From NCBI GenBank assembly GCA_032250835.1, contig JAVVEA010000017.1:9556-73555 (forward strand): DNA of 64,000 nt, in the 5' to 3' direction. The translations under genes were made by a program, and so were the position numbers. This document shows, one piece after another, positions 7,101 through 58,989 of the stretch. Source of the stretch: a bacterium (GTDB lineage: Bacteria > SAR324 > XYD2-FULL-50-16). Positions within the stretch are counted from its first letter, which is position 1. The number at the start of each line of letters is the position of its first letter. Below the pieces are notes generated by a model. The model was not told where the DNA came from, did no database searches, and worked only from the letters and a program-made list of their open reading frames with translations.

Positions 7101-9407
7101 CTAGCGGATGGCCCGCTCAATCAGTTCTGCCGGGAGAATTTCAGAGGGTACGCGGTAGTTCAGCAGCCACAACTGATGGGCCGCTCGGGTGGCACCGATA
7201 TGCAGTAAGTACCTTGAATAGCTGTTGTCTGGATAGTTTATAACATCCACATCCATCAAGATCACATAATCAAACTCTAAGCCCTTTACCTGCCGGAGGT
7301 CCGTAACGTCGATCCCGGCAGTGAAGCTAAAGTTCTGGTCGTCCACCAAGCGCAGATTGGGGATCTCCATCTTCTCTAAGGTCTGGTAATAGTCCTTAGC
7401 CGCCTTGGCGTCGGCGCAAATCAGCGCAATCGAGGCATTGGGCTCTTCTAGACTGAGGTCGTTGAGGCTTTGGGCCAGGTTGCGGCACAGCTCCCCTTGG
7501 TGAGCGAATTGGAACAGGTCCACCCCCGGGCCCTCCTTGACGGCCTTGAAGTCTTTGGTGCTGGCGAGGTCGCCTAAGACCTGCATCGCAAATTCCATGA
7601 TCTGGTGGGTGGCGCGGTAGCTGACCCGTAGATTGCTGACCTCCTGCCCAGGCAAGCCCAAGCTTTCAAAGAGGTACTTCCAGCCCTTAAAGCTATTGTT
7701 TTGGATCATCTGCTGGTTGACATCGCCTGCATAGGTCAGGCTGGTCGGCTCGGCGGCCGCCGAAAGCAAGACCCGGTGTTCGATCAGCGAAAGGTCTTGG
7801 GCCTCGTCCACAAAGAGGTGGTTAAAGGCCAAAGGACCGCGTTCAGGGGCCTCCAAGGGCCCCGCCAAATGGGCCCAGAAATAAAGCAAGATGCTGTCGT
7901 CTTCTAAGTCTAAGTCGGCCTCACCAGCCTCGGCCTTGCCCTGTTCTTTGGCACCCCACCAGTTGTGCCGGGCAATGTATTGCCCCCGCAGCCAGCTGAT
8001 CGCCTCGTCTAGTTGGGCGGGGCTGAATTCATCGGCGGCGTCACGCTCAAAGGCCTTACGCAGCCGTTCAAAATCAGAAAAGAACTCATCCCAAAGCTGC
8101 ACCACCAAGCGCCGTTTATTGCCAAAAAGATCCCCCACCATCGGCTCAACCAGATTCCAGACCATGGCCTTAACTTCGCCTGAATAAGGGAACGTAGCGG
8201 TCTGTTTGGGTTCGGGCCCACAGGCATCGCGCAGCCAGATTAGCTGGTCCACGAAGCTTTTGCTTTCCAAGATTTGGCTAAGCTGCTCGTCTAGATTTTT
8301 GGTCACCGTGATTTGGCTAAGTCCTTCTTCTAAAGCTAGCTTCTTTTCGATCAGGTACCGATCAATCAAATTCAATAAAGCCGGATGTTTTTTAAAGCGG
8401 ATCGCCACCGCCGGGGTTTCTTCGGAGACTTCTTTAGGCAGCAAGTTGCCATAAAGTTTGCGCTTGATGTCCGCCGCCCAAGTTTCAAAGACCGCGATTT
8501 CCACCCCCTTGACCCCCAAGGAGGGCAACACCAAAGAGATGTAATAGGCCAGCGCGCGGTTGAAGACCACGACCATCATCTTATCGGCAGCGAAGCGTTT
8601 GGGGTCCTTGCGGTGCAGCCAAGCGACCCGGTGCAACGCCACGGTGGTCTTGCCGGACCCGGCGGTACCCTGGATTGCCAAGATTCCCGTCGAAGGCTTG
8701 GTGATCAGGTCAAATTGGTCGGGATCGATCAGCGCTGTGATTTCGGGCAACAATTTGTGCCCAGCGCCCATCCCGCTTTTGGCAGTGCGGGCACGTTCGG
8801 CGCGGGTTGCTTGGCCCGAGCCGCCTTTGAGCAGATAGTGGCGGTGGTGGCCCTGCTGCCAGCCCTCTAGCGGGTCTTTGAAGAGATGGACTTGGTGGTC
8901 CTCAATGCGGACCAACTCGCCTTCTTCGACTTTCAACATCCGCTTGACGGCTACCACCCCTTCAGAAAGCCGCCCACCGATCTCTTCTTCATACTCGTCA
9001 CCTTGGAGGTAACGAAAATAGATCACGGCTATGGGCGAGGCCTTCCAGTCGATGATTTGCACGCCCGCTTCTTTGTTACTAAAAACCTGGGTGCCGATGT
9101 AAAGATCTCGGGTCCGCTCTTCTTCTAAGACCAACCGCGCAAAATAGGGGTTTAGTGGATTAAAACCATAGGCATCGGCCAGTTCAGACTGGTTGACCAA
9201 TTGGATCAAAGTGTTGATCTGTTCAGTCAAGTGGGCCACGTCGTCACTCTTGGCCTCGTCTAAAGCCTCTCTTAGCTCAATGATCTGGGCCAGATACTTT
9301 TCCCTGGCATCATCGAAGCGGTCCGCCGAAGAGAGCGTCAACAGGCGCTTCAGGTTAGCTTCTTCTTCACGGATAATGGCGACTTCTTCGGGCGTAAGCT
9401 GGTCCAT
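7101..9407 (-). CDS. UvrD/Rep-superfamily DNA helicase, HelD-like (helicase IV family)
   Basis: It has the Walker A GTAGSGKTTVALHRVAWL, UvrD-like ATP-binding and C-terminal domains, and a HelD-type N-terminal region. The product is 768 aa. Confidence 0.7.
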   Translation of the reverse strand: MDQLTPEEVAIIREEEANLKRLLTLSSADRFDDAREKYLAQIIELREALDEAKSDDVAHLTEQINTLIQLVNQSELADAYGFNPLNPYFARLVLEEERTRDLYIGTQVFSNKEAGVQIIDWKASPIAVIYFRYLQGDEYEEEIGGRLSEGVVAVKRMLKVEEGELVRIEDHQVHLFKDPLEGWQQGHHRHYLLKGGSGQATRAERARTAKSGMGAGHKLLPEITALIDPDQFDLITKPSTGILAIQGTAGSGKTTVALHRVAWLHRKDPKRFAADKMMVVVFNRALAYYISLVLPSLGVKGVEIAVFETWAADIKRKLYGNLLPKEVSEETPAVAIRFKKHPALLNLIDRYLIEKKLALEEGLSQITVTKNLDEQLSQILESKSFVDQLIWLRDACGPEPKQTATFPYSGEVKAMVWNLVEPMVGDLFGNKRRLVVQLWDEFFSDFERLRKAFERDAADEFSPAQLDEAISWLRGQYIARHNWWGAKEQGKAEAGEADLDLEDDSILLYFWAHLAGPLEAPERGPLAFNHLFVDEAQDLSLIEHRVLLSAAAEPTSLTYAGDVNQQMIQNNSFKGWKYLFESLGLPGQEVSNLRVSYRATHQIMEFAMQVLGDLASTKDFKAVKEGPGVDLFQFAHQGELCRNLAQSLNDLSLEEPNASIALICADAKAAKDYYQTLEKMEIPNLRLVDDQNFSFTAGIDVTDLRQVKGLEFDYVILMDVDVINYPDNSYSRYLLHIGATRAAHQLWLLNYRVPSEILPAELIERAIR

Positions 9408-9413
9408 AGACTC

Positions 9414-10205
9414 CTAAAATCTACTGGGCGCACCGGCACCCGGGGGAATAAAAAAAATAGCATGCTTGCGCCGTAGGCGCATCAACTGATCGGACTGGTA
9501 TTGGTCGTTCAAGCGGTGCGCTGAATTGAGCGCAACGTAGATGTTTCCGCCGTAAAAGGCCAGACCAAAGCCGCCCAAAAGCGCACCCAACCCCGCTTGC
9601 CCGTCCTGATAGCTTTCACGGCTGGCCACCGCAAACAGGCCGGTCAACAAAAAGGCATAGGCCCCTTCGCGCCAACGGCCCAGGTAAAAGCTCCCTGAGC
9701 CGGGCAGCAGGGCCGAAAGGCTGCCTGCCAGAGCCGGTGAATAGGGGGCTTCTTGGTCTCGGTCGCGCCATTCACGGGCAAAATCTTGAACATAAACCGC
9801 CTTGGGTTCTTCTGGCGCGACGGCCTCAAAGGCCAAGACCGCTTCTTCGACCCTTTGGGCGCGCATCCCATAAGGCGCATTGGCTTGGCTGTCTAGCTTA
9901 GCTAGCCCAAAAAGGATCAGGTAATCTGCCAAAGGGCGATCTACCTTGAGCAAGGATTCTAAGTAAGTAGCTGCCTGTTCTGGCTGCCCCCCTGCTAAAT
10001 ATGCGCGGGCGGTCATCGCTTGCGCCCTTTGGGCTTCGGCGCTGGTCGGAAAGTGGAAACGGAGGCGTTCGAATTCGGTGATGGCGCGGAAGTATTCGCC
10101 TTGGCTATAGAGGTGCTGGCCAAAATCAAATAGTTGGCGGGGTCCTTCGGCTGCAACGAGCAACCAGGGCCAAAATAATAAAAAGAGCAACAGGGCGCTT
10201 CGCAA
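9414..10205 (-). CDS. Hypothetical exported or membrane protein (signal peptide, TPR-like helical N-half, Gly-rich hydrophobic C-half)
   Basis: It is a clean ORF with a signal peptide; no family is recognised. Confidence 0.45.
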   Translation of the reverse strand: MRSALLLFLLFWPWLLVAAEGPRQLFDFGQHLYSQGEYFRAITEFERLRFHFPTSAEAQRAQAMTARAYLAGGQPEQAATYLESLLKVDRPLADYLILFGLAKLDSQANAPYGMRAQRVEEAVLAFEAVAPEEPKAVYVQDFAREWRDRDQEAPYSPALAGSLSALLPGSGSFYLGRWREGAYAFLLTGLFAVASRESYQDGQAGLGALLGGFGLAFYGGNIYVALNSAHRLNDQYQSDQLMRLRRKHAIFFIPPGAGAPSRF

Positions 10206-10290
10206 GGAACCTCTTGTAGAGTCAAAATCCAGGCGAAAATTGCAACACGGCCCAGGCTCTTTGGCAAGGGGCAGGTAGGCTCAGGGCACA

Positions 10291-10335
10291 AAAAAAGGGA
10301 GAGTCCTCATCATTTGAGTCCTCTCCCTTGGAGCC
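10291..10335 (-). terminator. Rho-independent terminator on the minus strand after sORF G
   Basis: On the minus strand the hairpin AAGGGAGAG...CTCTCCCTT is followed by TTTTTTT. Confidence 0.6.
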
Positions 10336-10405
10336 ACCGGTTCGGGCGATTTCGCGCCCGATGATCCCGATGGATGCTTTGGCTTATAACCCGACATAAA
10401 GCACC

Positions 10406-10498
10406 TCAAGCAAAGAGGTTCAGTACGCCGAGGGCCATCAGGGCATAAAGGCCCCATTTGATGGCTTGGATCTTTTGGCTCGATACATAATTAGTCAT
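10406..10498 (-). CDS. sORF G: 30-aa single-TM peptide MTNYVSSQKIQAIKWGLYALMALGVLNLFA (KIQ family)
   Basis: A GGAG RBS lies 8 nt upstream of the ATG. The product has a polar N-terminus and an 18-aa hydrophobic C-terminus. It is a member of the repeated family described in the findings. Confidence 0.6.
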   Translation of the reverse strand: MTNYVSSQKIQAIKWGLYALMALGVLNLFA

Positions 10499-10526
10499 GG
10501 CTGATCTCCTGTTAAACAAGGTTTGG

Positions 10527-10607
10527 TTAAGCTACGTAAGCGACCATCAAGGTCGTGGCCAGAGCGACAAATGCTACGATGGCCTGGGGGATTTTTGCGG
10601 TATCCAT
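10527..10607 (-). CDS. sORF F: 26-aa peptide MDTAKIPQAIVAFVALATTLMVAYVA
   Basis: An AAGGAGA RBS precedes the ATG. The peptide is identical to sORF E, and the DNA differs from E at 3 synonymous sites only. Confidence 0.65.
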   Translation of the reverse strand: MDTAKIPQAIVAFVALATTLMVAYVA

Positions 10608-10643
10608 GTTGGTTCTCCTTAAAGGGTTTAAGTTCGGTGAATT

Positions 10644-10724
10644 TTAAGCTACGTAAGCGACCATCAAGGTCGTGGCCAGGGCGACAAAAGCTACAATGGC
10701 CTGGGGGATTTTTGCGGTATCCAT
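10644..10724 (-). CDS. sORF E: 26-aa peptide MDTAKIPQAIVAFVALATTLMVAYVA
   Basis: An AGGAGA RBS precedes the ATG. It is a paralogue of sORF F. Confidence 0.65.
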   Translation of the reverse strand: MDTAKIPQAIVAFVALATTLMVAYVA

Positions 10725-10792
10725 TTTGGTTCTCCTAGTTAAGTTTAAGTTTAAAGTGGCTTGATTGCCGGTGAGGTTTTTTTGCACCTCAT

Positions 10793-10820
10793 GGGTATAT
10801 CTATTTCACGTGTCGTGCCA
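10793..10820 (-). promoter_or_regulatory. Candidate sigma-54-type promoter (minus-strand TGGCACG-ACAC-GTGAAATAGATATACCC) about 70 nt upstream of sORF E
   Basis: The -24 TGGCACG element is perfect. The -12 position reads GTGA instead of TTGC. The 28-nt block is conserved with 12032..12059. Confidence 0.4.
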
Positions 10821-10882
10821 CGATTAATTAGTGCAATATTATCAACAAGATACAAAAACTCCCTTCCAACCAGAAGATTAAA

Positions 10883-10906
10883 TTCGGAACTAATAATTCC
10901 GACATG
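10883..10906. promoter_or_regulatory. Inverted repeat TCGGAA-N7-TTCCGA (candidate enhancer/UAS for the adjacent EBP)
   Basis: A perfect 6-bp palindrome sits about 80 bp upstream of the 10793..10820 promoter, and the half-site recurs four more times in the region. Confidence 0.4.
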
Positions 10907-10998
10907 AACATCTCTTCAGAATCCCCTGAGCCCAATAGGCACTGATTAACATTTTAAAAACTTTATTTTCAGTAAGTTGCAAAATTTAAAGAACTAGT

Positions 10999-11040
10999 AG
11001 TTCCGTAAATACAAAATCAGAACTTTTAGTTCGGAACGCC
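10999..11040. promoter_or_regulatory. GTTCCG ... GAAC-TTTTA-GTTC-GGAAC palindromic half-sites (second candidate UAS, about 200 bp upstream of the promoter)
   Basis: CGGAAC half-sites in inverted orientation lie in an AT-rich spacer. Confidence 0.35.
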
Positions 11041-11081
11041 CTAAAGCACTTACCATAAGCCCTCGGCACCCCATAAACAAA

Positions 11082-11118
11082 AAAATCCCGTGGAGGCACC
11101 CGAAGGCAACTTCACGGG
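11082..11118 (-). terminator. Rho-independent terminator on the minus strand after sORF D
   Basis: On the minus strand the hairpin CCCGTG...CACGGG is followed by TTTTTTT. Confidence 0.55.
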
Positions 11119-11256
11119 ATCTTTAAGGGGAGTCCATCATCCACATTAAATGCCCGGGGGGACAGACAACGGATTGATGAACTAATAATAAGAGGCCGCA
11201 CCGGGGAACGACCGGCTAGCCTCTTGGGGCCCGCAAAAGCCCCTCCCCAAAAAAGC

Positions 11257-11439
11257 TCAGTATTGCAGGTAACCGATCAACATAGCCCCTAGCAATGTTA
11301 GATAAAAAAACCAAAGAGGCCCATGGCCCCGCTTGCGCCTAAAGATGCGCCGTTGGCCCAATCCTGAAGACCGCTCGAAGGTTTGCGGTGCTTCTTTCAC
11401 TTCCGGTTGGCGCAGCAAGTTGGCCGATTGGATTTTCAT
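11257..11439 (-). CDS. sORF D: 60-aa family member with an Arg-rich insert (MKIQSANLLRQ...RRIFRRKRGHGP...LTLLGAMLIGYLQY)
   Basis: A GGAGAG RBS precedes the ATG. It shares the MKIQ N-terminus and the C-terminal hydrophobic helix with the shorter paralogues. Confidence 0.5.
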   Translation of the reverse strand: MKIQSANLLRQPEVKEAPQTFERSSGLGQRRIFRRKRGHGPLWFFYLTLLGAMLIGYLQY

Positions 11440-11678
11440 AATCTACTCTCCTTTGGGGTGGTTGACCGATGCCCCTCAAAAACATTCGGCTCGACAAGCG
11501 CCCGTAGACGCACAAATGGGGGCTCAAGCCCCCTTGGTTATGTTTCGCCCCCAAGACCTATGCAACACAGGCCAGCAGCCAAGCTCCCGATAGAGAGCCC
11601 AGGACTACCCAATCTATGGGGGTTCTGTTTGTTTTTAATCGATTCACACTAACTCCTTGTGTATGGGTTCGCCCGTCC

Positions 11679-11765
11679 TTAGGCGAAGTAAGCCAAGACG
11701 CCGATGCCGAACAAAGCGTTCAGGGCGACGAAGTATTGCATGATCTTTTCTGCTTGGATTTTCAT
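11679..11765 (-). CDS. sORF C: 28-aa peptide MKIQAEKIMQYFVALNALFGIGVLAYFA
   Basis: A CAGGAGA RBS precedes the ATG. It is identical in protein to sORF B, and the DNA differs at 2 synonymous sites. Confidence 0.65.
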   Translation of the reverse strand: MKIQAEKIMQYFVALNALFGIGVLAYFA

Positions 11766-11796
11766 GTCGGTCTCCTGTTTAGGTCTAAGTTAAGTT

Positions 11797-11883
11797 TTAG
11801 GCGAAGTAAGCCAAAACGCCGATGCCGAACAAAGCGTTCAGAGCGACGAAGTATTGCATGATCTTTTCTGCTTGGATTTTCAT
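11797..11883 (-). CDS. sORF B: 28-aa peptide MKIQAEKIMQYFVALNALFGIGVLAYFA
   Basis: A GGAG RBS lies 7 nt upstream of the ATG. It is a paralogue of sORF C. Confidence 0.65.
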   Translation of the reverse strand: MKIQAEKIMQYFVALNALFGIGVLAYFA

Positions 11884-11908
11884 GTCGGACTCCAGAGGAA
11901 GTTTGTGT

Positions 11909-11995
11909 TTATGAGAACAGGGTCAATACCCCGAGACCTAAGAGTACGTTCAAGACGATCAGGTACTGGGGGAGTTTTTTAAATTCGATCTTCAT
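11909..11995 (-). CDS. sORF A: 28-aa peptide MKIEFKKLPQYLIVLNVLLGLGVLTLFS
   Basis: It has the same architecture as the other family members and is the first gene of the A-B-C cluster, but its RBS (AAGAG) is weak. Confidence 0.5.
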   Translation of the reverse strand: MKIEFKKLPQYLIVLNVLLGLGVLTLFS

Positions 11996-12031
11996 GACTT
12001 AGCTCTTAAAGAGTTTTATTTTTGCGTTCTT

Positions 12032-12059
12032 GGTTCTATCTGTTTCACAAGCTGTGCCA
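12032..12059 (-). promoter_or_regulatory. Candidate sigma-54-type promoter (minus-strand TGGCACA-GCTT-GTGAAACAGATAGAACC) about 40 nt upstream of sORF A
   Basis: It matches the 10793..10820 motif at 20 of 28 positions, with a perfect TGGCAC -24 element and a non-canonical -12. Confidence 0.4.
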
Positions 12060-12127
12060 AGCAGTTTATATAACTGTTTTTATTTGATATAATAAATTTG
12101 CTACCCAGAACACAGGGCTATAATCAG

Positions 12128-12152
12128 AATTTTTGATTCCGAAAAATAATGA
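12128..12152. promoter_or_regulatory. TTCCGAA-AAATAAT half-site (candidate UAS, about 80 bp upstream of the promoter)
   Basis: It has the same TTCCGAA/TAATAA elements as 10883..10906. Confidence 0.3.
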
Positions 12153-12224
12153 AATCCCCGGCGCGCCCCGAAAGAGACGCCTGGATTAATCAAAATAATT
12201 TAATATATTCAGGTAGTTGTAAGT

Positions 12225-12265
12225 TTTACGGAACTGAAAGGTCCGTTTAAGGCTGGTCGGAACTG
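12225..12265. promoter_or_regulatory. ACGGAAC-N6-GTCCGT imperfect palindrome plus a TCGGAAC half-site (candidate UAS, about 190 bp upstream of the promoter)
   Basis: CGGAAC-type half-sites recur here, and the spacing relative to the promoter mirrors the E-F-G locus. Confidence 0.35.
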
Positions 12266-13702
12266 TTAATTCTCATCGTACTCAGATGAGTACTTAAACT
12301 CCTCTTTTTTAATATGATATTTAGTGAGGAGTTTGTGTAGTTGGCGGGTGGTGATCCCGGCGGTGGCGGCTGAATCGTTGATCTTGCCCTTGTGTCGAGT
12401 CAACAACTGGATCAGGTAGGCCTGCTCCACCTGTTCCACCGCCAGCTGGCGTACCTCAGCCAAAGGCGAGTTAGCGTCCACCACCAGCCCGCCGCGCCCT
12501 TTGTCTTGGGCCAAGAAATCGCCGGGGAGGCTGCTAGGCAGCAGGCAGTTGGTTTTCTCTAAGATATAAGCACGCTCTAAGATATTCTCTAATTCCCGGA
12601 TGTTGCCGGGGAAGCTGTACTTTTGTAGGGCCTTGAAGCTATCGGGGTGGATACTAGTGATCCGGCGGCCATATTCGCCTTCTAGATATTTTAAGAAGTT
12701 GTTGGCCAACAGCGGGATGTCTTCGGCCCGTTCGCGTAAGGGGGGAACGGTGATCGGGAAGACGTTGAGGCGGTAATAGAGGTCTTCGCGGAATTCGCCG
12801 GATTTGGAGCGTTCTAAAAGGTCTTCGTTGGTGGCGGCAATCACCCGCACGTCGGTGTCGAGCATACTTTCACCGCCGACGCGCTGCATCACATGGTCTT
12901 GCAAAACCTGCAACAGCTTGGTCTGGGCGGCGGGGCTGATGGTGCCGATCTCGTCTAAGAAGATAGTCCCGCCTTTGGCGATCTCAAAACGACCCAATTT
13001 GCGCTTTACCGCGCCGGTAAAGGAGCCCTTCTCATGCCCGAATAACTCGGATTCGATTAAGTTGTCGGGGATCGCCCCGCAGTGGACGTGCACGAAGGGC
13101 CCGCCGCGCCGCGCCGAGTTGCGGTGGATCAAACGCGCCAAGACCCCCTTACCCACGCCGGTTTCGCCTAAGAGCAACACCGAAGAGTCCGTCGGGGCCA
13201 CCGAATGGGCCTGTTCGAACATGCTGATCATCACCTGCGAGTTGGTCTTGGTGACCCCCTGCTTGTCGTCATCCCAGACCGACATGCGCAGCATCTCTAA
13301 CTCAGACTGCACCTGGGTGTTGGTCTCTAAGTCTTCGAGAGTGTGCAGCAGGGCCTGCGGGTCGATGGGCATAACCAAATAATGGTTGGCCCCGGACTTG
13401 ACCGCTTGGATCAGGTTGCGGATCTGGTCTTGGGTACTGATCACCACCAGCGAGGCGGTCAGGTAGATTTCGCGGAATTTTTCAAAAACTTTCTGGAACG
13501 CCGCTGTAGAGGTGGTGGCGGCGAATCCGTCTTCCACCAAATAGACCAAGTCGATGAACGTGACCTCATAGCGGTGTTTTTTGAACCGATCGAGGCACTC
13601 ATCTAAGCTCAGCACCGAATCGATCCGGTAGCGGTCGCCGATGGTGAAGGTGATGGCGTCGATGGCGTCTTTCGACGGTGTTAAAGTCAGTACAGAACGC
13701 AT
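12266..13702 (-). CDS. Sigma-54-dependent transcriptional activator (bEBP, NtrC/Fis family) with a degenerate receiver-like N-domain
   Basis: It has an AAA+ sigma-54 interaction domain (GETGVGKG Walker A, GSFTGA = GAFTGA motif) and a C-terminal Fis-type HTH. The N-domain lacks the canonical acidic pocket. Confidence 0.85.
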   Translation of the reverse strand: MRSVLTLTPSKDAIDAITFTIGDRYRIDSVLSLDECLDRFKKHRYEVTFIDLVYLVEDGFAATTSTAAFQKVFEKFREIYLTASLVVISTQDQIRNLIQAVKSGANHYLVMPIDPQALLHTLEDLETNTQVQSELEMLRMSVWDDDKQGVTKTNSQVMISMFEQAHSVAPTDSSVLLLGETGVGKGVLARLIHRNSARRGGPFVHVHCGAIPDNLIESELFGHEKGSFTGAVKRKLGRFEIAKGGTIFLDEIGTISPAAQTKLLQVLQDHVMQRVGGESMLDTDVRVIAATNEDLLERSKSGEFREDLYYRLNVFPITVPPLRERAEDIPLLANNFLKYLEGEYGRRITSIHPDSFKALQKYSFPGNIRELENILERAYILEKTNCLLPSSLPGDFLAQDKGRGGLVVDANSPLAEVRQLAVEQVEQAYLIQLLTRHKGKINDSAATAGITTRQLHKLLTKYHIKKEEFKYSSEYDEN

Positions 13703-13729: not shown

Positions 13730-14701
13730 TTAGGCCCTTGAAGCCTGCCTGTCCATCTCAACTGGCAATCCCGTCCCAAAAGCAAAAACCGGCATCCCCG
13801 CGAAAACCACCGCAGAGTCGGCGTGGCCTAGCAATACGCCTGCTTTTTCGGCCTTGAGTAGCGCCAAGCTGCGCCCCAAAGGATCGTAAATCCGCGCCAA
13901 GGGTTGGCGGGCTTTGACCCAAGCGCCGGGGGCGACGAGGTAACGGATGATCCCGCTGGCCGGGGCCCAGGGGCGGTTCGAGTAGACCAACCTGCGGTCT
14001 AGCTCGCCAATCGGCAAAGCCTCGGCGGCCTTTTGGGGCACCACCATCTCCATTTGCGCCATCAGGGCCCAAATCCTCTCAAGACCCAACCGCACCCACT
14101 GCTCGTTGACCAAATGAGACTCACCTAATTCCAAGGTCAAGGCAGGCACACCGGCATCCAAAAGCGCCGGGGCCAACGCCCCTTCGATCAGTTCAATGTC
14201 TTCGACCGCCAACAAGCCGGTGGCCGCCAGATAGTCGCGGGCCTTTTGGTGGGCCGGCGTTTCGCCGGGCTCGGTTAAGCCGTAGGGGATGCTCCGGTTC
14301 CAGTCGTTGTGCAGGTCTAAAACGAGTTCGGGCTTGCTTTTCATGATCCAATCAAAGACCGCAAAGGCATGCCGACGGCCCAGACTAGCCGCCGGGTTGC
14401 CGGGGAAACAGCGGTTGAGGTCCTCGCCGGTATAAGGCAACTCGCGGCGACGCGCCTCAAAACCCACCGGGTTGACCATCGGCAAGGCCATCACCTTACC
14501 GCAGAGCAGACCCCAGCGCTTGAGTGCTTTAAATAGTTCATGCACCACCGCCATCCCGCCGACCTCGTCGCCATGCATGCAGGCAGTCAGCCAGATGGTC
14601 GGACCAGGCCGCTCGGCGCGGGCCTCCAACAGAGGCAAACGGCGCGATTCAGGCCCCAAACCAGGCAAGCTACGCAGGTGAGAAGCGGCAAAACCGGTCA
14701 T
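13730..14701 (-). CDS. Succinylglutamate desuccinylase/aspartoacylase (AstE/AspA) family zinc hydrolase
   Basis: It carries the Zn-binding motif IWLTACMHGDEVGG and is 323 aa. Confidence 0.7.
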   Translation of the reverse strand: MTGFAASHLRSLPGLGPESRRLPLLEARAERPGPTIWLTACMHGDEVGGMAVVHELFKALKRWGLLCGKVMALPMVNPVGFEARRRELPYTGEDLNRCFPGNPAASLGRRHAFAVFDWIMKSKPELVLDLHNDWNRSIPYGLTEPGETPAHQKARDYLAATGLLAVEDIELIEGALAPALLDAGVPALTLELGESHLVNEQWVRLGLERIWALMAQMEMVVPQKAAEALPIGELDRRLVYSNRPWAPASGIIRYLVAPGAWVKARQPLARIYDPLGRSLALLKAEKAGVLLGHADSAVVFAGMPVFAFGTGLPVEMDRQASRA

Positions 14702-19195: not shown

Positions 19196-19557
19196 CAAAT
19201 TCCTCTTAAAAAGTGGAGTTCCCCGCTGGCGCAAGAAACACCGAATAAAAATGGCAAACAAAATTCATTTAAGTAAAACTACCCTAACACAACTAGGCTA
19301 AAAAGCTATGTTATCTTAGCCCCCTCCCAGCTGATCGGGTGGGAAAATTTTAGCGATGCCTTTGAAAACCTAAATTTTCCGGACCTGTTTTTTATGGAAG
19401 CACCCGGTCTTTCACTGGGTTCATTGGGCATTGTAGGGGAGCCAGCCCCCGCTGCGGACCGCTCGCTGCTGAAATCCCCTTGGCAGGGAGTATAAAAGGT
19501 CCTATCTTTCAAATAGGATTGGGAATCTTTTTTTCACCTCTTTAGGTGGTTCTTACC

Positions 19558-20274
19558 ATGGCCTTTGCGACCCGACCTCGATTGATCAATCTTCGGATTG
19601 CCCGTCAACCCGACGACATCAGCTGCGGCCCGACCTGCCTGCACAGCATCTACAACTGGTTCGGCGACGACATCCCGCTTTCCGAGGTGATCCGCCAAAC
19701 ACCCATGCTGCGCGGCGGCGGGACCCTAGCGGCCAACTTGGGTTACCACGCCTTGACCCGCGGCTACCAAGCGACCATCTACAGCTACAACCCCATCCTC
19801 TTCGACCCCAGCTGGAACGGGTTAGAAGCTGAGGAAATGATCAACAAGCTAGAACGCCAGCAGCGCCTAAAAGAGGGTTCACAGTTGGCCAGTTCGACCA
19901 AGGCCAATATCCGCTTCCTGCGCGCTGGTGGCTTGGTGCGCTTTGATGACCTGACCCCGCAACTGCTGCTCAGCCACTTATCGGAGCCGGTGCCCATCTT
20001 GGCGGGCCTTTCGGCGACTTACCTTTACAAAAGCAAGCGCGAAAACCCGGTAACCAATGAATACGACGACATCAAAGGCGAGCCCGCCGGGCATTTTGTG
20101 GTCTTAAGTGGCTTCGACCGCGAGCGCGGCAGCCTACAGATCACCGATCCCTACTCCCCCAATCCGGTCTCCGAAACCCATGAATATGAGGTGAGCCTTG
20201 AGCATTTGGTTTGCTCGATCCTGTTGGGCGTGATCACCTACGATGCAAATTTACTGATTCTGCGTAAACCATGA
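19558..20274 (+). CDS. Papain-like (C39-like) cysteine peptidase domain protein
   Basis: It has Q-x5-C (QPDDISCGPTCL) followed by a downstream His (AGHFVV). An AGGTGG RBS precedes the ATG. Confidence 0.55.
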   Translation: MAFATRPRLINLRIARQPDDISCGPTCLHSIYNWFGDDIPLSEVIRQTPMLRGGGTLAANLGYHALTRGYQATIYSYNPILFDPSWNGLEAEEMINKLERQQRLKEGSQLASSTKANIRFLRAGGLVRFDDLTPQLLLSHLSEPVPILAGLSATYLYKSKRENPVTNEYDDIKGEPAGHFVVLSGFDRERGSLQITDPYSPNPVSETHEYEVSLEHLVCSILLGVITYDANLLILRKP

Positions 20275-21722
20275 GAAACCTGATCATCGTTGAATCCCCC
20301 AAGGACTGGCCCAACAAGGGAAATTCCTTTGAAGTGATCCATTACCGAGACTACCTAAGTGGCGAAGAGTTCCAAAAGGACAAAAACATAAGGGTTTTTA
20401 ACCTCTGTGACTCTTACCGCTACCATAGCTACGGATATTACGTTTCCCTCTTGGCCGATGCCCGTGGCCACCGCCCCACGCCGTCGGTGGCTACCTTGCA
20501 AGAAATGAAGTCCCGCCCCTTCTTGCGGCTCGCTTCCGAGCCGCTAGACGGCTTGATCCAAAAAGCATTGGGTTACCTGAAGTCCGATCACTTCGAGTTG
20601 AGTATTTATTTCGGCCAAAACCTAGCCAAACACCACCAGGAACTGGCCGACGAACTTTCGCGTAGCTTTGCGGTCCCCATGATCCGCGCCAAGTTCGTTA
20701 AAAAAGACCGCTGGCAGCTCACCTCGGTGGGGCCTATCGCCCTCAAAGAGGTTTCGGACGAACACTTTGACTCCTTGGTCGCCTTTGCCCAAGCCTATTT
20801 TAAACGCCGCCAGCGCAAGGCTGAAGCACCGGTACGCTTCTCCTTAGCGATTTTGGTCAACCCCGAAGAAACCTTTCCGCCTTCCAACGAGCGGGCCTTA
20901 AAAAAGTTTTCCGCTGCGGGCCAAGAGTTGGGCTTGGAGGTGGACCGGATCACCGCCAAGGACCTGCGCCGCTTGGGCGAATATGACGCCCTTTTCATCC
21001 GCGAAACCACGGCGGTCAACCACCATACCTTCCGCTTTGCTATAAAGGCCCAATCCCTGGGCATGGTAGTGATCGACGACCCGAACTCGATCATCCGCTG
21101 CACCAATAAGGTCTATCTCGCCGAACTGCTGCACCAGCACCACATCCCCACCCCCGCCAGCCAGGTGCTTTCGCGCGAAGACTTGGCCAAGCGTGGCCTA
21201 AAAATCCCCTTCCCGGCGATCCTCAAGCAGCCCGATGGTTCCTTTTCCCAGGGCGTGGTGAAGGTGCAAAACCCGGCAGAACTGGAAGAGAAGGCCCTGA
21301 GCTTCTTCGGTGATTCGGACCTGATTTTAGCCCAAGAATTTTTCCCCACCGCCTTTGATTGGCGGGTGGGGATGATCAACGGGCAGGTGTTATATGTTTG
21401 CCGCTACCACATGGCCAGAGGCCATTGGCAGATCATCAAAACCACCGCCGGGGGCAAACAACTAGACGGCAAGGTGGACGTAATCCCCTTAGACCAGACC
21501 CCGCCCGCCTTGCTCAAGCTGGCCCAAGAGGCGGCCCAGTTGATCGGCAAAGGGTTTTATGGCTTGGACATCAAGGAACGAAGCGGCAAGTTTTACGTCA
21601 TCGAAATCAACGACAACCCCAGCGTTGATGCGGGATTTGAAGACCAATTACTGAAAGACGAGCTTTACCTAAAGATCATGAACGTCTTTTTAGAACGACT
21701 GCTTAAGAAGGTAAACCGATGA
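20271..21722 (+). CDS. RimK-family ATP-grasp ligase with an about 180-aa N-terminal extension
   Basis: It has a C-terminal ATP-grasp fold with RimK-like motifs, and its start overlaps the upstream gene stop by 4 nt. Confidence 0.7.
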   Translation: MRNLIIVESPKDWPNKGNSFEVIHYRDYLSGEEFQKDKNIRVFNLCDSYRYHSYGYYVSLLADARGHRPTPSVATLQEMKSRPFLRLASEPLDGLIQKALGYLKSDHFELSIYFGQNLAKHHQELADELSRSFAVPMIRAKFVKKDRWQLTSVGPIALKEVSDEHFDSLVAFAQAYFKRRQRKAEAPVRFSLAILVNPEETFPPSNERALKKFSAAGQELGLEVDRITAKDLRRLGEYDALFIRETTAVNHHTFRFAIKAQSLGMVVIDDPNSIIRCTNKVYLAELLHQHHIPTPASQVLSREDLAKRGLKIPFPAILKQPDGSFSQGVVKVQNPAELEEKALSFFGDSDLILAQEFFPTAFDWRVGMINGQVLYVCRYHMARGHWQIIKTTAGGKQLDGKVDVIPLDQTPPALLKLAQEAAQLIGKGFYGLDIKERSGKFYVIEINDNPSVDAGFEDQLLKDELYLKIMNVFLERLLKKVNR

Positions 21723-22936
21723 CCTTAGGTTGGTTTGAGGGCTTCGGCATTGAAGCCGAATACATGATTGTAGACCAAAAAACTCTAGCGGTGCGCCCCA
21801 TCGCCGATGAGGTTTTGGCCCAGATGGCCGGAGGTCCGGCGGACGAAGTGGAGTTGGGGCTCGTCGCTTGGTCTAATGAGTTGGTTTTACATGTATTAGA
21901 GCTTAAGGCCAACGGGCCGCAAAGGGAGCTCAAGGCGCTGCATCTGGCCTTTGTCGAGGCCCTACGCCAGATGAACCAGCGACTTAAGGCCTGGGGCGCT
22001 AAGCTTTTGCCCACAGCCATGCACCCGCTCTTTGATCCCCAGACCGAAACCAAACTCTGGCCCCATGGCAACCGCGAGATTTATCAGGCCTATGACCGCA
22101 TCTTTGACTGCCGAGGGCATGGCTGGTCGAATCTGCAAAGCCTGCACATCAATTTCCCCTTTGAGGGAGACCGGCAATTTGTCCGGCTGCACGACGCCAT
22201 CCGGCTGGTCTTGCCGCTGCTGCCCGCGCTCGCCGCCAGTTCGCCGCTCGAAGAAGGTAAAGCCACCGGGCAGGTGGACAGCCGCCTGTTCCACTACCGC
22301 CGCAACCAAGCCAAGATTCCGGCCATCGCCGGACAGGTGGTGCCCGAGCGGGTGTCCAGCAGCGCTGATTACCAAGAAAAAATCTTAAAACCCATCTACC
22401 AAGCCATCGCGCCCTTAGACCCCCAGGGCATCTTGGCCGAAGAATGGCTCAACTCGCGCGGGGCCATTGCCCGCTTCGACCGCTCAGCCATCGAAATCCG
22501 CCTCTTGGACTTGCAGGAGTGCGCCGTAGCCGACTTTGCCTTGGCCGCTTTGGTGATCTCTTTGGTGCAAGAACTGGCCACCGGGCCCGACGCCTTGCCG
22601 GTGATCCCCGAGCAGCGCTTGGCGGCTCAACTTTGGGGCGCCGCTGAACAGGGTAGGCGCTGGGTGATTGAAGACCCAGAAATTCTGGGCGCTTTGGGCC
22701 TGGAAGCAAACCCCACTGCGGTGGGCGACCTCTGGCGCAGCTTGGTGGACCGGCTGACTGGCCAGGGCTTGCCGCTCGATAACTTTTTGCCCCAGGTCTA
22801 CCGATTGGTACAAAAAGACAGCTTAGCGAGGCGCATTTTGCGGGGCTGCGGAGAAGGACAGGCTGGGATTTTAAAGGTTTACGGCGAATTGGCCCAATGT
22901 CTGGAAGAGGACTGGCCCTATGAACCTACTGCTTAG
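21719..22936 (+). CDS. Carboxylate-amine ligase, GCS2/YbdK family (glutamate-cysteine-ligase-like)
   Basis: The N-terminus FGIEAEYMIVD is typical of GCS2. It is translationally coupled to the upstream gene. Confidence 0.7.
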   Translation: MTLGWFEGFGIEAEYMIVDQKTLAVRPIADEVLAQMAGGPADEVELGLVAWSNELVLHVLELKANGPQRELKALHLAFVEALRQMNQRLKAWGAKLLPTAMHPLFDPQTETKLWPHGNREIYQAYDRIFDCRGHGWSNLQSLHINFPFEGDRQFVRLHDAIRLVLPLLPALAASSPLEEGKATGQVDSRLFHYRRNQAKIPAIAGQVVPERVSSSADYQEKILKPIYQAIAPLDPQGILAEEWLNSRGAIARFDRSAIEIRLLDLQECAVADFALAALVISLVQELATGPDALPVIPEQRLAAQLWGAAEQGRRWVIEDPEILGALGLEANPTAVGDLWRSLVDRLTGQGLPLDNFLPQVYRLVQKDSLARRILRGCGEGQAGILKVYGELAQCLEEDWPYEPTA

Positions 22937-23606
22937 CTGCGAACATGGCGGGAACCAGCTCCCGCCCGAGTATGCCGCCGATTTAGGGCCCCTTACCAGA
23001 GACTTGCTGGATTCGCACCGAGGCTGGGACCCCGGAGCCTTGGCCGTGGCGCGCCAACTGTCCAAGGCCCTAAAGCGCCCCTTGGTTTTTTCTGAGACCA
23101 GCCGCTTACTGGTGGATTTAAACCGCAGCCTGGGCCACCGGAACCTATTCGGCCCCGAGGCCAAACTTTGGCCCCAGGAAAAGCGCCACGCCTTGCTGGC
23201 GCGTTATTACCACCCCTACCGTCAGGCCTTTGAACAGCGGGTCGAAGAAGCCTTAGCCCAGGGTCCACTTTGGCATGTGGCGGTGCATTCCTTCAGCCCC
23301 ATTTGGGAAGGCCAACCCCGCCGGACGCAGATCGGGCTGCTTTATGACCCCCAAAGGGACGCCGAGAAGGAGTTGGCGCTGTCCTGGCAAAGGGACCTGC
23401 AAGCGCGGTTCCCGGACTGGTCGATCCGCCGCAATGCACCCTACCGCGGCCAAGCCGACGGTCTAACCACCTACCTACGCCGCCGCTTTGGCCCCGCATA
23501 CCGGGGCTTTGAACTCGAATTACGCCAAGACCTATTGGCCTTGCCCGAAGACCGGGGTCGGCTGGCGGAACGCTTGACCGCGTCGATCCGCACCGTCCTG
23601 GGCTGA
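22920..23606 (+). CDS. N-formylglutamate amidohydrolase (FGase) family protein
   Basis: It carries the SCEHGGN motif and is 228 aa. Confidence 0.65.
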   Translation: MNLLLSCEHGGNQLPPEYAADLGPLTRDLLDSHRGWDPGALAVARQLSKALKRPLVFSETSRLLVDLNRSLGHRNLFGPEAKLWPQEKRHALLARYYHPYRQAFEQRVEEALAQGPLWHVAVHSFSPIWEGQPRRTQIGLLYDPQRDAEKELALSWQRDLQARFPDWSIRRNAPYRGQADGLTTYLRRRFGPAYRGFELELRQDLLALPEDRGRLAERLTASIRTVLG

Positions 23607-25116: not shown

Positions 25117-25572
25117 TTAAGTGCATGGACTCAAAGTCCCACTCTGAAATGCCCCCACGTACCTTCCGCTTGTGCCCTGAATAACCAAAAGCAGAAACTC
25201 TACAGTTAGCTGTCCATTTTCAAATTGATCCTTGATCATCATTCGGTCTCTACTTGAGGGTGTAGGCTTACTTTCAGCATGGGTGTGCCATTCGCCCAAA
25301 TATATGGTCCTCTGCCCACTATTAAGATACTCATAATCGATGATCACCTGAGCAGGAAAAACTGCACGAACAAATCCATACCGCTTGCGTTTGTCTTTTG
25401 AGTTTGGGGTAGTTATTTTTGAAACCACCACTTTATTCAACTCTGGGTACACCTCTCCCAGCAGTATCCCCCCCGCTTCTTTCGACGAATGGGCGTTTTG
25501 ACGAAAACTCTCCATGACAACAACAACCGAATCTTCAATTTGGATTTTCCATTCCTGAAATCTGGTCTTCAA
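25117..25572 (-). CDS. cap3: CBASS Cap3, a JAB/JAMM (MPN+) isopeptidase
   Basis: It carries the JAMM motif EWHTHAESKPTPSSRD (HxH-x7-S-xxD) and lies last in the operon. Confidence 0.75.
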   Translation of the reverse strand: MKTRFQEWKIQIEDSVVVVMESFRQNAHSSKEAGGILLGEVYPELNKVVVSKITTPNSKDKRKRYGFVRAVFPAQVIIDYEYLNSGQRTIYLGEWHTHAESKPTPSSRDRMMIKDQFENGQLTVEFLLLVIQGTSGRYVGAFQSGTLSPCT

Positions 25573-27289
25573 AATCTATCCTCTCCAATGTACCTTCGCT
25601 ATAATATTGTTGAACCCTTGAAGCTTCAAAAGCCCTGTTCCCGCTAGGCGAACCAGCCCACTTCCAACAAATCAACTGCTCCTTTTGGCCGTGGCAACAA
25701 TCCATAATACGAGAAAACACCTTGCTTAAAAAGGCATTGATGTCTCTACCGCTGAACGGGGCGAAAGTTCCTTGGCACCCTCCTTCATTCAAGCGATAGC
25801 GGCTTTCTTCTTGAATGTACTCCTCAGGTGGAATCGTATTCCCAAAATAGAAGCCTTGTTTATCATGTAATTTTTCAAAAAGGATTAGGTCTGGTTTTGA
25901 AAAGCACAAACAGTGAGCCCCTAAAAGAAAGGGTTCGACAAACAAAATCACAACAGGACATTTGATTCCATGCTGTTCCATCTGTGAAAGTACAAATTTT
26001 GTAATAGCCCGTTCGCCTGTTGCTAGAACACAGGCTGTTGCCCCAGAAAACGCCTCCGGATTCTTGCCTAAAAATTCTCCTATACACCCGGATATTGCTT
26101 CGACCTTAGTATGAGGCATGGTCGAGCGTACAAAGTCAGCCATTGCTGTTGCCTTATTCTGCCCGCACTGAGCAATTCCCAAAATATGGCGAGGTACATT
26201 TTCAGGTTTAAGCCTGTCTTTATCGACCAATGTTACACTCTGAATAGGCATGAACCTTAGCAGCCCAAGCAAATTGGAGCCGATACTCCCAAGACCAATT
26301 ATTGCCAGTTTTTCGATTCGATTAGACCGATGAACGCCTTCTGTCCGTTTCTCAAGCCTTGAGAGACCAATATCTCTGGCCAATACTCTTACAGCGTCTA
26401 TCTTGAGTAAAGGCAGGCCAAATGCATTTCGTTTTCCCATACTTCCATGAAGCCGCTTTTGCGGAGGCGTTACCCTCCAGCCCAACAGGTAGTCAGTACC
26501 TTTGAACCTCTGAGAAAACAGCAAATAAAAAGGCTCTGGAGCCAAATTTAACTTCAGATCAAGCCAATCAATCAAATCAAGATTCCGAACCATAACGGCA
26601 GGTAAAATCTCTTCCGCTGGAAAATGATACGGGGGAAGCTTCTTAGGGGTGAAACGTATTAGTTGGGCTGGATATTCAGCGAGTGGCTGTCCCCAAACCG
26701 CTTCAATATTTTCCACTATTGGGGTCTGAGTTGAGGGCAAAATAAAGCTAAGTATACGATTATCTTTGCGGTATGCCTTCACCGAAATCAAAGTGCCCCT
26801 TTGCATACAGGGCAAGGCAAAATATAAACCTTCGTCTACAATGTCCGTCGAGCTATATAATTGCCGCCAGTAGTCAACAAATTCCCTTGAAAACTCCTCG
26901 TAATTTTCACCCCTTACGCCTGTCTCAACGACTTCTAAAGCTTTATGAACAGTATCTATTATTAGTTCATGTGGCTGCAATATAGAGCCATCTATCAGTT
27001 CATCCTCCCAAGGACAAACAAGACAATTCTCGTCAACATGAGGAATATATCCCACTTGAGCTTTAAGCTCTCGTGACAGATAGACCTTGGGCGGTTTGAA
27101 GGAAAATAATCGTGTGATCTGCAGATAGGCTACGCCGCATAGAATACCTCCGTCTTTGCGAAGAATATTCAGCTCAACAGATATACAACAACCGAGGCTG
27201 TGTTCACCTTCATCTTCATCAGGAGAAGGAATTTTGGCTTTAAACGACTTCGGTAATTGTTTTACAAGGTTGGCTAAGTCTTGCCTCAT
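25535..27289 (-). CDS. cap2: CBASS Cap2, an E2-like/E1-like (ThiF/MoeB) fusion
   Basis: The C-terminal half has a Rossmann motif IIGLGSIGSNLLG and a ThiF-like fold. The N-terminal half is UBC-like. It overlaps the cyclase stop by 4 nt. Confidence 0.75.
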   Translation of the reverse strand: MRQDLANLVKQLPKSFKAKIPSPDEDEGEHSLGCCISVELNILRKDGGILCGVAYLQITRLFSFKPPKVYLSRELKAQVGYIPHVDENCLVCPWEDELIDGSILQPHELIIDTVHKALEVVETGVRGENYEEFSREFVDYWRQLYSSTDIVDEGLYFALPCMQRGTLISVKAYRKDNRILSFILPSTQTPIVENIEAVWGQPLAEYPAQLIRFTPKKLPPYHFPAEEILPAVMVRNLDLIDWLDLKLNLAPEPFYLLFSQRFKGTDYLLGWRVTPPQKRLHGSMGKRNAFGLPLLKIDAVRVLARDIGLSRLEKRTEGVHRSNRIEKLAIIGLGSIGSNLLGLLRFMPIQSVTLVDKDRLKPENVPRHILGIAQCGQNKATAMADFVRSTMPHTKVEAISGCIGEFLGKNPEAFSGATACVLATGERAITKFVLSQMEQHGIKCPVVILFVEPFLLGAHCLCFSKPDLILFEKLHDKQGFYFGNTIPPEEYIQEESRYRLNEGGCQGTFAPFSGRDINAFLSKVFSRIMDCCHGQKEQLICWKWAGSPSGNRAFEASRVQQYYSEGTLERIDFEDQISGMENPN

Positions 27290-28278
27290 TGCTTGGCGCT
27301 AGAGGCGTTACCCGGCAAGCTTGTTGCTTTTGCATGTTTTTTTGCTCTTTCAAACCTCTTTGATTTGAGGTCATCGCACTTAAATCGGGGCCCTAGGTAT
27401 TTCGCCCAAATTTTACAGGCTTCATATTCGTCCTCATCCTCGAGTGCAATTTTTCCATCCTCTAAAAGCAGTTCAAGCTCCCCTAAAAAGAACTCCTTTT
27501 GCTCGTCGGAAAAGTCTTCAAACAGGTCCTCCCGCTTAGGCGTTGGTCGCGTACAAGTAAACTGCCCCCACTTAAGATGCCTATCATCGATCACGTTCTG
27601 TATCGCCTGAAGGGTAGCAACTAGCGATTGGTCATCCCTGGCAGCAGGTCGATAGTGGTTCACCGTCAAAATCGTTAAGCAAAACCCACTAGGTAACTCA
27701 TATTTTTTTGAACGAACTTCCCGCCAGACTTTCAAATATCTTATCAGTCTAATAAGCTGTGAGTTGTTACCTGTTTTTTCCCGAAACCACTCTATAAACG
27801 CACGAGGGTCACTTTCAACCCAACCTAGTTTCTTATGGGCTAAGTCAGGAGAATCCGTTGCTGTAAGTGAAAACTTTTCAGTTAATTTTTCGAGGAAGTA
27901 TATTGGCATGTCGATATGCCTATCATCTTGGTATTTCACTCGGACGCATGTCGGTTTATCCTCTACCGTTCGTTTCCTACGCTGAACGGCACTTACCACA
28001 ATAGAATGAGCATCTTTTACGGACGGCCTGTTTTCCATAGCACAAGAAAAATAGACCCCATCATCAATGTCGTACTCTCCGTTTTCTGGCTCCACTATTG
28101 TGTTCAAAACATACGACCCCTGCCCAGCAAATTTGACTGAGATATCCGACTGGTCTTTCAATTCAGCACGAATATCTTTCCTCAAAGCGTTCCTAGATTC
28201 TCTTAAGCTTTGCTTTTTCGATTCACTCAGCTTGATCTTTTCGTTAAATGATTTAAATTGCTTAGCTAAATCAGCCAT
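27286..28278 (-). CDS. cdnX: CD-NTase (cGAS/DncV-like nucleotidyltransferase)
   Basis: It carries the GS...[DE]h[DE]h motif GQGSYVLNTIVEPENGEYDIDDGVYF. The start is reassigned to MADLAKQ, which has a GAGG RBS. Confidence 0.75.
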   Translation of the reverse strand: MADLAKQFKSFNEKIKLSESKKQSLRESRNALRKDIRAELKDQSDISVKFAGQGSYVLNTIVEPENGEYDIDDGVYFSCAMENRPSVKDAHSIVVSAVQRRKRTVEDKPTCVRVKYQDDRHIDMPIYFLEKLTEKFSLTATDSPDLAHKKLGWVESDPRAFIEWFREKTGNNSQLIRLIRYLKVWREVRSKKYELPSGFCLTILTVNHYRPAARDDQSLVATLQAIQNVIDDRHLKWGQFTCTRPTPKREDLFEDFSDEQKEFFLGELELLLEDGKIALEDEDEYEACKIWAKYLGPRFKCDDLKSKRFERAKKHAKATSLPGNASSAKQ

Positions 28279-28291
28279 CTCAGCCTCGTAT

Positions 28292-58647: not shown

Positions 58648-58675
58648 TGGCACGGCTCTTGAAATACTAAGAGCA
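58648..58675 (+). promoter_or_regulatory. Candidate sigma-54-type promoter TGGCACG-GCTC-TTGAAAT
   Basis: The -24 element is perfect and the -12 reads TTGA. It lies about 80 nt upstream of the 58741 ORF and is preceded by phased A-tracts. Confidence 0.4.
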
Positions 58676-58740: not shown

Positions 58741-58989
58741 ATGATCGAAAAAACCTTGAAGAAAATCTCAGCTCAATTGGAACTGTTTGCAAAAAACGGC
58801 ATCAGCATCCTGCGCGCCCTGGACATTTTGGAAGCCTCTACCCAAGACGTAGAAGAAATCATCTGTTTGAATACGCTGCGCGAATCTCTGGTTGAAGTAG
58901 CCAGCAGCGACAAGAAGAAAACCAGCAAGAGCTTGGTCAACTTTGCAAAACCCCGGCACGAAGGGCTGCAAGCAGTTGGTATGGCTTAA
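58741..58989 (+). CDS. Hypothetical protein (82 aa)
   Basis: A GGAGAAAG RBS precedes the ATG. Confidence 0.4.
   Translation: MIEKTLKKISAQLELFAKNGISILRALDILEASTQDVEEIICLNTLRESLVEVASSDKKKTSKSLVNFAKPRHEGLQAVGMA

Follow-up and report, generated by a model that had tools for sequence, protein, structure and literature searches.

We analyzed a 64-kb window (64,000 nucleotides, the whole stretch considered here) of contig JAVVEA010000017.1, from a bacterium of the SAR324 lineage, for which a preliminary description had reported a conserved 28-nucleotide (nt) promoter block upstream of two operons of small open reading frames (sORFs). The blocks at 10793-10820 (P1) and 12032-12059 (P2), together with a third site at 58648, are very probably promoters dependent on sigma-54 (RpoN), with P1 and P2 switched on by the bacterial enhancer binding protein (bEBP) whose gene is adjacent. 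At all three sites, the C of the consensus -12 element is replaced by A. Comparison with related loci indicates that this A is the prevalent -12 spelling in SAR324 and Candidatus (Ca.) Lambdaproteobacteria relatives, not a defect specific to the locus.

Both 28-mers were present on the minus strand at these coordinates (P1, TGGCACGACACGTGAAATAGATATACCC; P2, TGGCACAGCTTGTGAAACAGATAGAACC), and the third site was located on the plus strand (TGGCACGGCTCTTGAAATAC). The described resemblance between P1 and P2 held, although 21 rather than 20 of the 28 positions are identical, and the -24 half is, as had been claimed, a perfect TGGCAC at all three sites. The pattern TGGCAC-N5-KTGAAA matches the window three times (10804-10820 and 12043-12059, minus; 58648-58664, plus), against a mean of 0.01 matches expected by chance, and none of 100 dinucleotide-preserving shuffles of the window reached three. 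The blocks had been placed 40-70 nt upstream of the first genes; we found approximately 36 and 68 nt. Counting from the T of TGGCAC, the distance to the first start codon is 64 nt for P2 (sORF A), 96 nt for P1 (sORF E), and 93 nt for the third site, which precedes a gene for an 82-amino-acid (aa) protein. No perfect TGGCAC-N5-TTGC occurs anywhere in the 64-kb window. On the coding strand upstream of either sORF operon we found no sigma-70-like promoter of the TTGACA-N16-18-TATAAT type, the only minus-strand match (10515-10487) being internal, and an Rfam search of 10000-12400 returned no family.

Two other candidates were set aside. The first, a fourth match (TGGCACGGCACGTGAAG, 1892, plus), falls within a gene for a methyl-accepting chemotaxis protein (MCP)-hemerythrin protein (94-2055) and is regarded as chance, while a TGGCAA-N5-TTGC at 59236, upstream of a DUF3187 gene, has a score within the range of the shuffles and is not conserved in two related loci, L017 and L031. 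We also observed a weak sigma-54-like TGGTAT-N5-TTGA at 2188 (+), in the intergenic region between the MCP gene and an MFS gene (2188-2340). A hairpin resembling an intrinsic terminator follows approximately 115 nt further on (about 2303-2340); it could reflect a small RNA or chance.

The preliminary description had taken the adjacent bEBP gene as favoring sigma-54, and the 478-aa product bears this out. Pfam searches identified the sigma-54 interaction domain (Sigma54_activat, E = 2.9e-66), AAA_lid_14, and a C-terminal HTH_8 (E = 5e-4), and the protein contains the ELFGHE and GSFTGA motifs, the latter in the L1 loop. The N-terminal Response_reg match, at 25.3 bits, falls under the 30.2 cutoff. 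The N-terminal acidic (DD) pair is absent from this bEBP and its homologues, inspection by eye shows another residue in place of the conserved KP-motif Lys, and several orthologues have no receiver match at all. The receiver domain thus looks degenerate, and no histidine kinase gene adjoins the bEBP gene. An exact look-up of the bEBP protein returned no matching record; its closest named homologues are from SAR324 cluster bacteria. A gene for an AstE/AspA-like deacylase (13730-14701) precedes the bEBP gene both in the window and in the related locus L001.

Both sORF promoters are downstream of the bEBP gene, with 207 nt between its stop codon and the P2 block. Upstream of each promoter is a cluster of three palindromes resembling GGAAC-N5-GTTCC, which we scored as GGAA-N7-TTCC and whose offsets we counted from the T of TGGCAC (Table 1); the background density of such palindromes is 0.55 per kb. 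The offsets at P1 and P2 agree to within one nucleotide, and comparable offsets were found in relatives: approximately -215, -186, and -81 in L001 and L003, and -222, -193, and -91 in L006 and L009. The half-sites in relatives have drifted slightly, to GGAAT/ATTCC or GGAAA/TTTCC. These predicted sites have the layout of a classical bEBP enhancer.

We compared the window with loci that encode bEBP homologues (51%-85% identity). In L001, L003, L004, L006, and L009, the bEBP gene, the palindromes, TGGCAC-N5-NTGAAAT at the position orthologous to P2, and tandem sORFs for 21-28-aa hydrophobic peptides follow one another in that order. L005 and L012 retain the promoter with larger proteins downstream. 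Across these seven loci, the motif is 64-116 nt upstream of the orthologous sORFs or other bEBP targets, and the -24 and -12 blocks form conserved islands in intergenic DNA whose spacers and flanks have diverged. L006 also contains TGGCACGGAGCATGAAATA / TGGCACGGAGCATGAAATATACT 109 nt upstream of amtB-glnK, which is a classical target of sigma-54 and NtrC. No GGAA-N7-TTCC palindromes were found upstream of this amtB promoter or of the third site in the window.

L012 derives from a SAR324 metagenome-assembled genome (MAG; GCA_015231885.1). Its orthologous bEBP gene is accompanied by AGAAC-N5-GTTCC sites and, in place of the sORFs, by a gene for a 126-aa secreted protein; a paralogue nearby has a nearly identical promoter, TGGCAT-N5-TTGAAGATAAA (8192-8688, minus; 11529-11995, plus). 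Pfam and NCBIfam searches of the L011 and L012 target proteins found no significant family. A scan of genome contigs with the window bEBP yielded only distant bEBPs of other phyla (L014-L016), and the TGGCAC-N5-GTGA site of L014 is within a 320-aa ORF.

These comparisons bear on the possibility that the 28-nt similarity is without function and simply left over from a recent event that duplicated the sORF operon in tandem. The two operons are indeed paralogous and adjacent, and block positions 21-28, which are alike in the two window copies, are merely A/T-rich in orthologous promoters. Since conservation among orthologous promoters extends over only about the first 19-20 nt (TGGCAC-N5-NTGAAATA), the extra identity between the window copies most likely reflects local duplication. 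Those first 19-20 nt, unlike the neighboring DNA, are kept across relatives whose bEBPs are only 51%-57% identical, and also at the third site and before amtB. Moreover, P1 and P2 differ at four of the five spacer bases while the flanking elements are identical. A remnant of duplication as the whole explanation is therefore very improbable.

The third site gives a direct view of the -12 base. The 82-aa gene that it may drive has no significant family in Pfam or NCBIfam searches, and its orthologues are kept in synteny, from ThyX to aspartokinase. In the orthologous promoters, the -12 element begins with TTGA in five more sequence versions, all distinct, and with TTGC in one. The window site has TTGAAAT, as do L017/L022 and L024-L026; L020/L031, from a named Ca. 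Lambdaproteobacteria genome, have TTGAAAA, and L023 has TTGAACT. In L019/L021/L028, the element is TTGCAAT, which is the perfect canonical sigma-54 form, at the identical position. Thus, a single promoter carries either A or C at -12, which is hard to reconcile with anything but a sigma-54 promoter. As no GGAA-N7-TTCC palindrome precedes the third site, its activator is probably a different, non-adjacent one. A separate feature, a set of conserved A-tract/GCC repeats (TTTTTGCCCAAAAA...GGCCAAAAA / GGGCAAAAAAAA), is found approximately 70-117 bp upstream of the third promoter, at 58531-58577 in the window and 8119-8160 in L031, and may be the upstream activator site (UAS) of this activator.

The preliminary description had offered an alternative, that the blocks bind some other protein that has co-opted a TGGCAC core, and we found no support for it. 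If TGGCAC-N5-KTGAAA were such an operator, with transcription from another type of promoter, the missing -12 C would need no explanation. Yet the half-sites form no palindrome and are spaced exactly as in sigma-54 promoters, the third site has an orthologue with a perfect canonical sigma-54 promoter sequence in the same place, and the motif precedes unrelated genes that include amtB-glnK. A bEBP gene and UAS palindromes lie alongside, and no sigma-70-like -35/-10 pair is present on that strand. We consider an unrelated operator scarcely credible. The other suggestion made at the outset, sigma-54 with a variant -12 element, accords with the bEBP, the palindromes at conserved offsets, the retention of the motif in orthologues, the amtB-glnK site, and the canonical TTGCAAT orthologue.

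To gauge how unusual A at -12 is, we tallied the clade's distinct TGGCAY-N5-NTGN sites that are intergenic and co-oriented, leaving the last base free. All 21 have exactly the N5 spacing typical of sigma-54, and the -12 base is A in 17, C in four, and G or T in none. When the -24 element was relaxed, the -12 base outside long ORFs was A at 16 sites, C at seven, G at two, and T at one, as compared to 54 A, 26 C, 63 G, and 28 T inside ORFs. In the subgroup of window-like sites, A outnumbers C by 13:1. The clade's TGAAATA is the enterobacterial extended -12 sequence, TGCAATA, with a single C-to-A change. Canonical TTGC sites also exist within the clade, in L019, L012 (at 9705), and L011.

As a baseline, we used four parts of the S2 table of a survey of sigma-54 promoters in 33 classes (PMC12316311), which contain sequences from EcoCyc, RegPrecise, Barrios et al. 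(1999), and DBTBS; the S3 table lists protein motifs of EBPs rather than a promoter matrix. Within these parts, A occupies -12 in three of 29 Desulfomicrobium baculatum sites and one of approximately 166 sites in the second of the RegPrecise Desulfovibrionales sets, in five of approximately 156 Barrios and DBTBS entries at N5 spacing (Rhizobium nifH genes and Rhodospirillum rubrum glnB), and in none of the well-known Escherichia coli promoters, among which pspA and pspG have T. This amounts to approximately nine of 350 entries (about 2.6%) in those parts, compared to 17 of 21 in the clade (Fisher's exact p of about 2e-19). A at -12 is thus strongly over-represented in the clade. SAR324 is not among the 33 classes and the main text of the survey mentions no such variant (PMC12316311). 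Our literature search found no paper linking SAR324 with sigma-54 promoters and nothing relevant on class-specific -12 variants.

The variant has precedents. The earlier statement that the -12 C is missing was correct, since all three window sites have TGA, but calling this base near-invariant overstated the oddity, as TGGCAC-N5-TTGAA/GTGAT sequences are among the promoters of Barrios et al. These include Rhizobium sp. nifH (TGGCAC-gacgc-TTGAAaat), R. leguminosarum/R. phaseoli nifH (TGGCACGGGTTTTGAAG), and R. rubrum glnB (TGGCACGAGGCGTGATAAG); predicted examples are D. baculatum zraP, lpxC, and fliK and DVU0805 (TTGATA). All share the core architecture of the window sites, including GA at -12. 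Because Rhizobium sp. nifH has this sequence, sigma-54 holoenzyme (E-sigma54) is known to be able to use the GA spelling. A at -12 is therefore a documented minority variant elsewhere, the GC dinucleotide at -12 being a matter of consensus and not strictly required. In those organisms it is confined to a minority of sites, mostly rhizobial nif promoters, whereas here it is the majority base across a lineage and precedes unrelated genes: sORFs, amtB-glnK, and the 82-aa gene. That distribution is what is new, the variant itself being known.

One explanation for the excess of A is that these are sigma-54 promoters read by a sigma-54 whose -12 specificity has changed in the clade, through substitution in the region III extra-long helix–helix-turn-helix (ELH-HTH) that reads the -12 base, such that A is preferred and not just tolerated. 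The contrast between 17 of 21 clade sites and about 2.6% of the entries in the compilation parts used, the 13:1 ratio in the window-like subgroup, and the limitation of the change to one base of an otherwise intact extended -12 element (TG-AATA) are what such a change would produce. No altered sigma factor is required, though, because the clade also has canonical TTGC sites, ordinary sigma-54 already uses TTGAA/GTGAT at Rhizobium nifH and R. rubrum glnB, and variation in the activator L1 loop does not track the -12 A: GSFTGA is restricted to the window bEBP and its closest relative, and orthologues with the same promoters carry GAFTGA. We therefore regard an altered sigma-54 as possible, though doubtful.

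Several points weigh against assigning the window sites to sigma-54 with a lineage-wide -12 A. The consensus -12 C is absent at all three. No rpoN ORF, as recognized by RpoN box and HTH signatures, was found in the window or in the related loci, which total 404 kb; the bEBPs suggest that sigma-54 is present. The relatives are MAG or metagenome contigs only, and their taxonomic labels rest on protein similarities of 57%-74%. The aspartokinase of the source contig is 74% identical to that of Ca. Lambdaproteobacteria RIFOXYD1 and approximately 60% identical to those of SAR324 cluster bacteria; Lambdaproteobacteria are sister to SAR324 in an AprA protein phylogeny (PMC10476264). Many of the 21 clade sites are orthologous or paralogous to one another, such that the independent events number fewer than 21. 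In addition, the clade set was required to have a good -24 element, and the RegPrecise entries in the baseline are themselves predictions made with consensus-based matrices.

Under a sigma-54 mechanism, E-sigma54 would bind TGGCAC at -24 and NTGAAAT at -12 as a closed complex. The bEBP would bind the three GGAAC-N5-GTTCC palindromes approximately 214, 185, and 81 bp upstream of P1 and P2, loop over the A/T-rich spacer, and open the promoter through ATP hydrolysis. With P1 and P2 open, the tandem genes, which encode hydrophobic peptides of 26-30 aa, would be expressed. The third promoter would use the same sigma factor with a different, non-adjacent activator. Dependence on sigma-54 and the bEBP, the transcription start sites (TSSs; approximately 12033, 10794, and 58674), and DNA looping are all predicted from sequence.

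Compared to canonical E. coli sigma-54 promoters such as those of glnK, rtcB, zraP, and norV (TGGCAC-N5-TTGCAAT), the window sites are alike in the -24 TGGCAC, the spacing, and the extended -12 TG-AAT(A), and probably also require a bEBP that binds 80-220 bp upstream. They differ in the C-to-A change, at all three window sites and at the same 17 of 21 clade sites. The E. coli pspA and pspG promoters (TGGCAC-N5-TTGTA) also lack the -12 C, with T rather than A in its place. They are experimentally established sigma-54 promoters with a dedicated bEBP and small membrane-associated products. Their activator, PspF, has no receiver-like domain, unlike the window bEBP, and the 26-30-aa peptides have no relation to the psp products. 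NtrC, ZraR, and DctD resemble the window bEBP in the order of receiver-like, AAA+, and HTH domains and in having multiple dyad-symmetric upstream sites; they differ in that the window bEBP has an apparently degenerate receiver and no adjacent histidine kinase gene.

On the minus strand, the order of features is the bEBP gene, P2, sORFs A, B, C, and possibly D, a terminator-like hairpin, P1, sORFs E, F, and G, and a terminator (Table 1). Each sORF is preceded by a Shine-Dalgarno sequence. Because of these sequences, and because the B/C and E/F pairs differ only by synonymous codons, the sORFs look like real coding genes. Pfam and NCBIfam searches of the peptides found no significant family; the peptides may be small membrane proteins. 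Longer last peptides comparable to the product of sORF D are encoded in L003 and L004. The terminator scan missed the hairpin of the P2 operon, which has a large loop.

Table 1. Predicted promoters, activator sites, genes, and terminators in the window
Feature	Coordinates	Strand	Description
Promoter P2	12032..12059	-	-24 TGGCAC, 12054-12059; -12 GTGAAAC, 12042-12048, with A for consensus C; predicted TSS near 12033
Promoter P1	10793..10820	-	-24 TGGCAC, 10815-10820; -12 GTGAAAT, 10803-10809; predicted TSS near 10794
Third promoter	58648..58675	+	TGGCAC, 58648-58653; TTGAAAT, 58659-58665; predicted TSS near 58674
82-aa gene	58741..58989	+	Putatively driven by third promoter; no known family; ThyX-to-aspartokinase synteny conserved
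bEBP gene, 478 aa	12266..13702	-	Receiver-like N terminus, AAA+ sigma-54 interaction domain, weak C-terminal HTH_8
UAS palindrome 1 of P2	12259..12273	.	-214; AGAATTAACAGTTCC; 1 mismatch to GGAA-N7-TTCC; overlaps bEBP stop codon
UAS palindrome 2 of P2	12230..12244	.	-185; GGACCTTTCAGTTCC
UAS palindrome 3 of P2	12126..12140	.	-81; GGAATCAAAAATTCT
UAS palindrome 1 of P1	11019..11033	.	-213; AGAACTTTTAGTTCG; 2 mismatches
UAS palindrome 2 of P1	10990..11004	.	-184; GGAACTACTAGTTCT
UAS palindrome 3 of P1	10886..10900	.	-80; GGAATTATTAGTTCC; perfect
sORF A, 28 aa	11909..11995	-	MKIEFKKLPQYLIVLNVLLGLGVLTLFS; orthologue in L001
sORF B, 28 aa	11797..11883	-	GGAG Shine-Dalgarno; 2 synonymous and 0 non-synonymous codon differences from C
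sORF C, 28 aa	11679..11765	-	Protein identical to B
Possible sORF D, 29 aa	11558..11647	-	GTG start, AAGGAG Shine-Dalgarno; uncertain
Probable intrinsic terminator, P2 operon	11078..11118	-	CCCGTG...CACGGG then T-run; by eye
sORF E, 26 aa	10644..10724	-	MDTAKIPQAIVAFVALATTLMVAYVA
sORF F, 26 aa	10527..10607	-	Protein identical to E; 3 synonymous and 0 non-synonymous differences
sORF G, 30 aa	10406..10498	-	
Probable intrinsic terminator, P1 operon	10290..10327	-	GGGAGAG...CTCTCCC then T7; by eye

Tandem arrays of genes for 21-30-aa hydrophobic peptides recur in the relatives (window, 10406-11995, minus; L003, 7911-8140; L004, 7818-8260; L006 and L009, approximately 9400-9655, minus). They consist of one to three near-identical copies, with duplicates that differ only synonymously, followed by one longer peptide. 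Throughout the clade, such arrays are the predicted conserved targets of bEBPs of this family. At the end of the P2 operon, a putative coding ORF of 60 aa (11257-11439, minus) has a good Shine-Dalgarno sequence and would encode a C-terminal hydrophobic segment; the same ORF holds a terminator-like hairpin and T-run (11330-11316).

Elsewhere in the window, a low-GC island (0.445-0.49) at 25117-28927 (minus) contains an operon resembling a type II cyclic-oligonucleotide-based antiphage signaling system (CBASS). Its genes encode a Cap15-like cyclic-dinucleotide receptor effector (28292-28927), a DncV-like CD-NTase (27286-28365), an E2+ThiF/E1 fusion (25535-27289), and a Prok-JAB protein (25117-25572). 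A plus-strand cluster at 19546-23606 encodes a C39-like peptidase, a RimK-like ATP-grasp protein (RLAN+RimK), a GCS2 glutamate-cysteine-ligase-like protein, and an N-formylglutamate amidohydrolase, and may function as a module that ligates or modifies peptides.

The assignments made here give two operons of otherwise unannotated micro-peptide genes a predicted regulator, binding sites, and promoters, and give a conserved but orphan 82-aa gene a predicted promoter. They extend known biology rather than reveal a new mechanism. Much of the sigma-54 regulon of this lineage will escape matrix searches whose training promoters come from Proteobacteria and Firmicutes, as the amtB-glnK promoter of L006 illustrates. 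The interchange of C and A at orthologous promoters provides a natural comparison for learning how sigma-54 recognizes the fork-junction base at -12. If the consensus in SAR324 and Ca. Lambdaproteobacteria has shifted to TGGCAC-N5-TTGAAATA because sigma-54 itself now reads the -12 base differently, which is possible though doubtful, this sigma-54 would represent a natural specificity variant of RpoN, and consensus-based surveys would systematically under-call sigma-54 regulons in this phylum.

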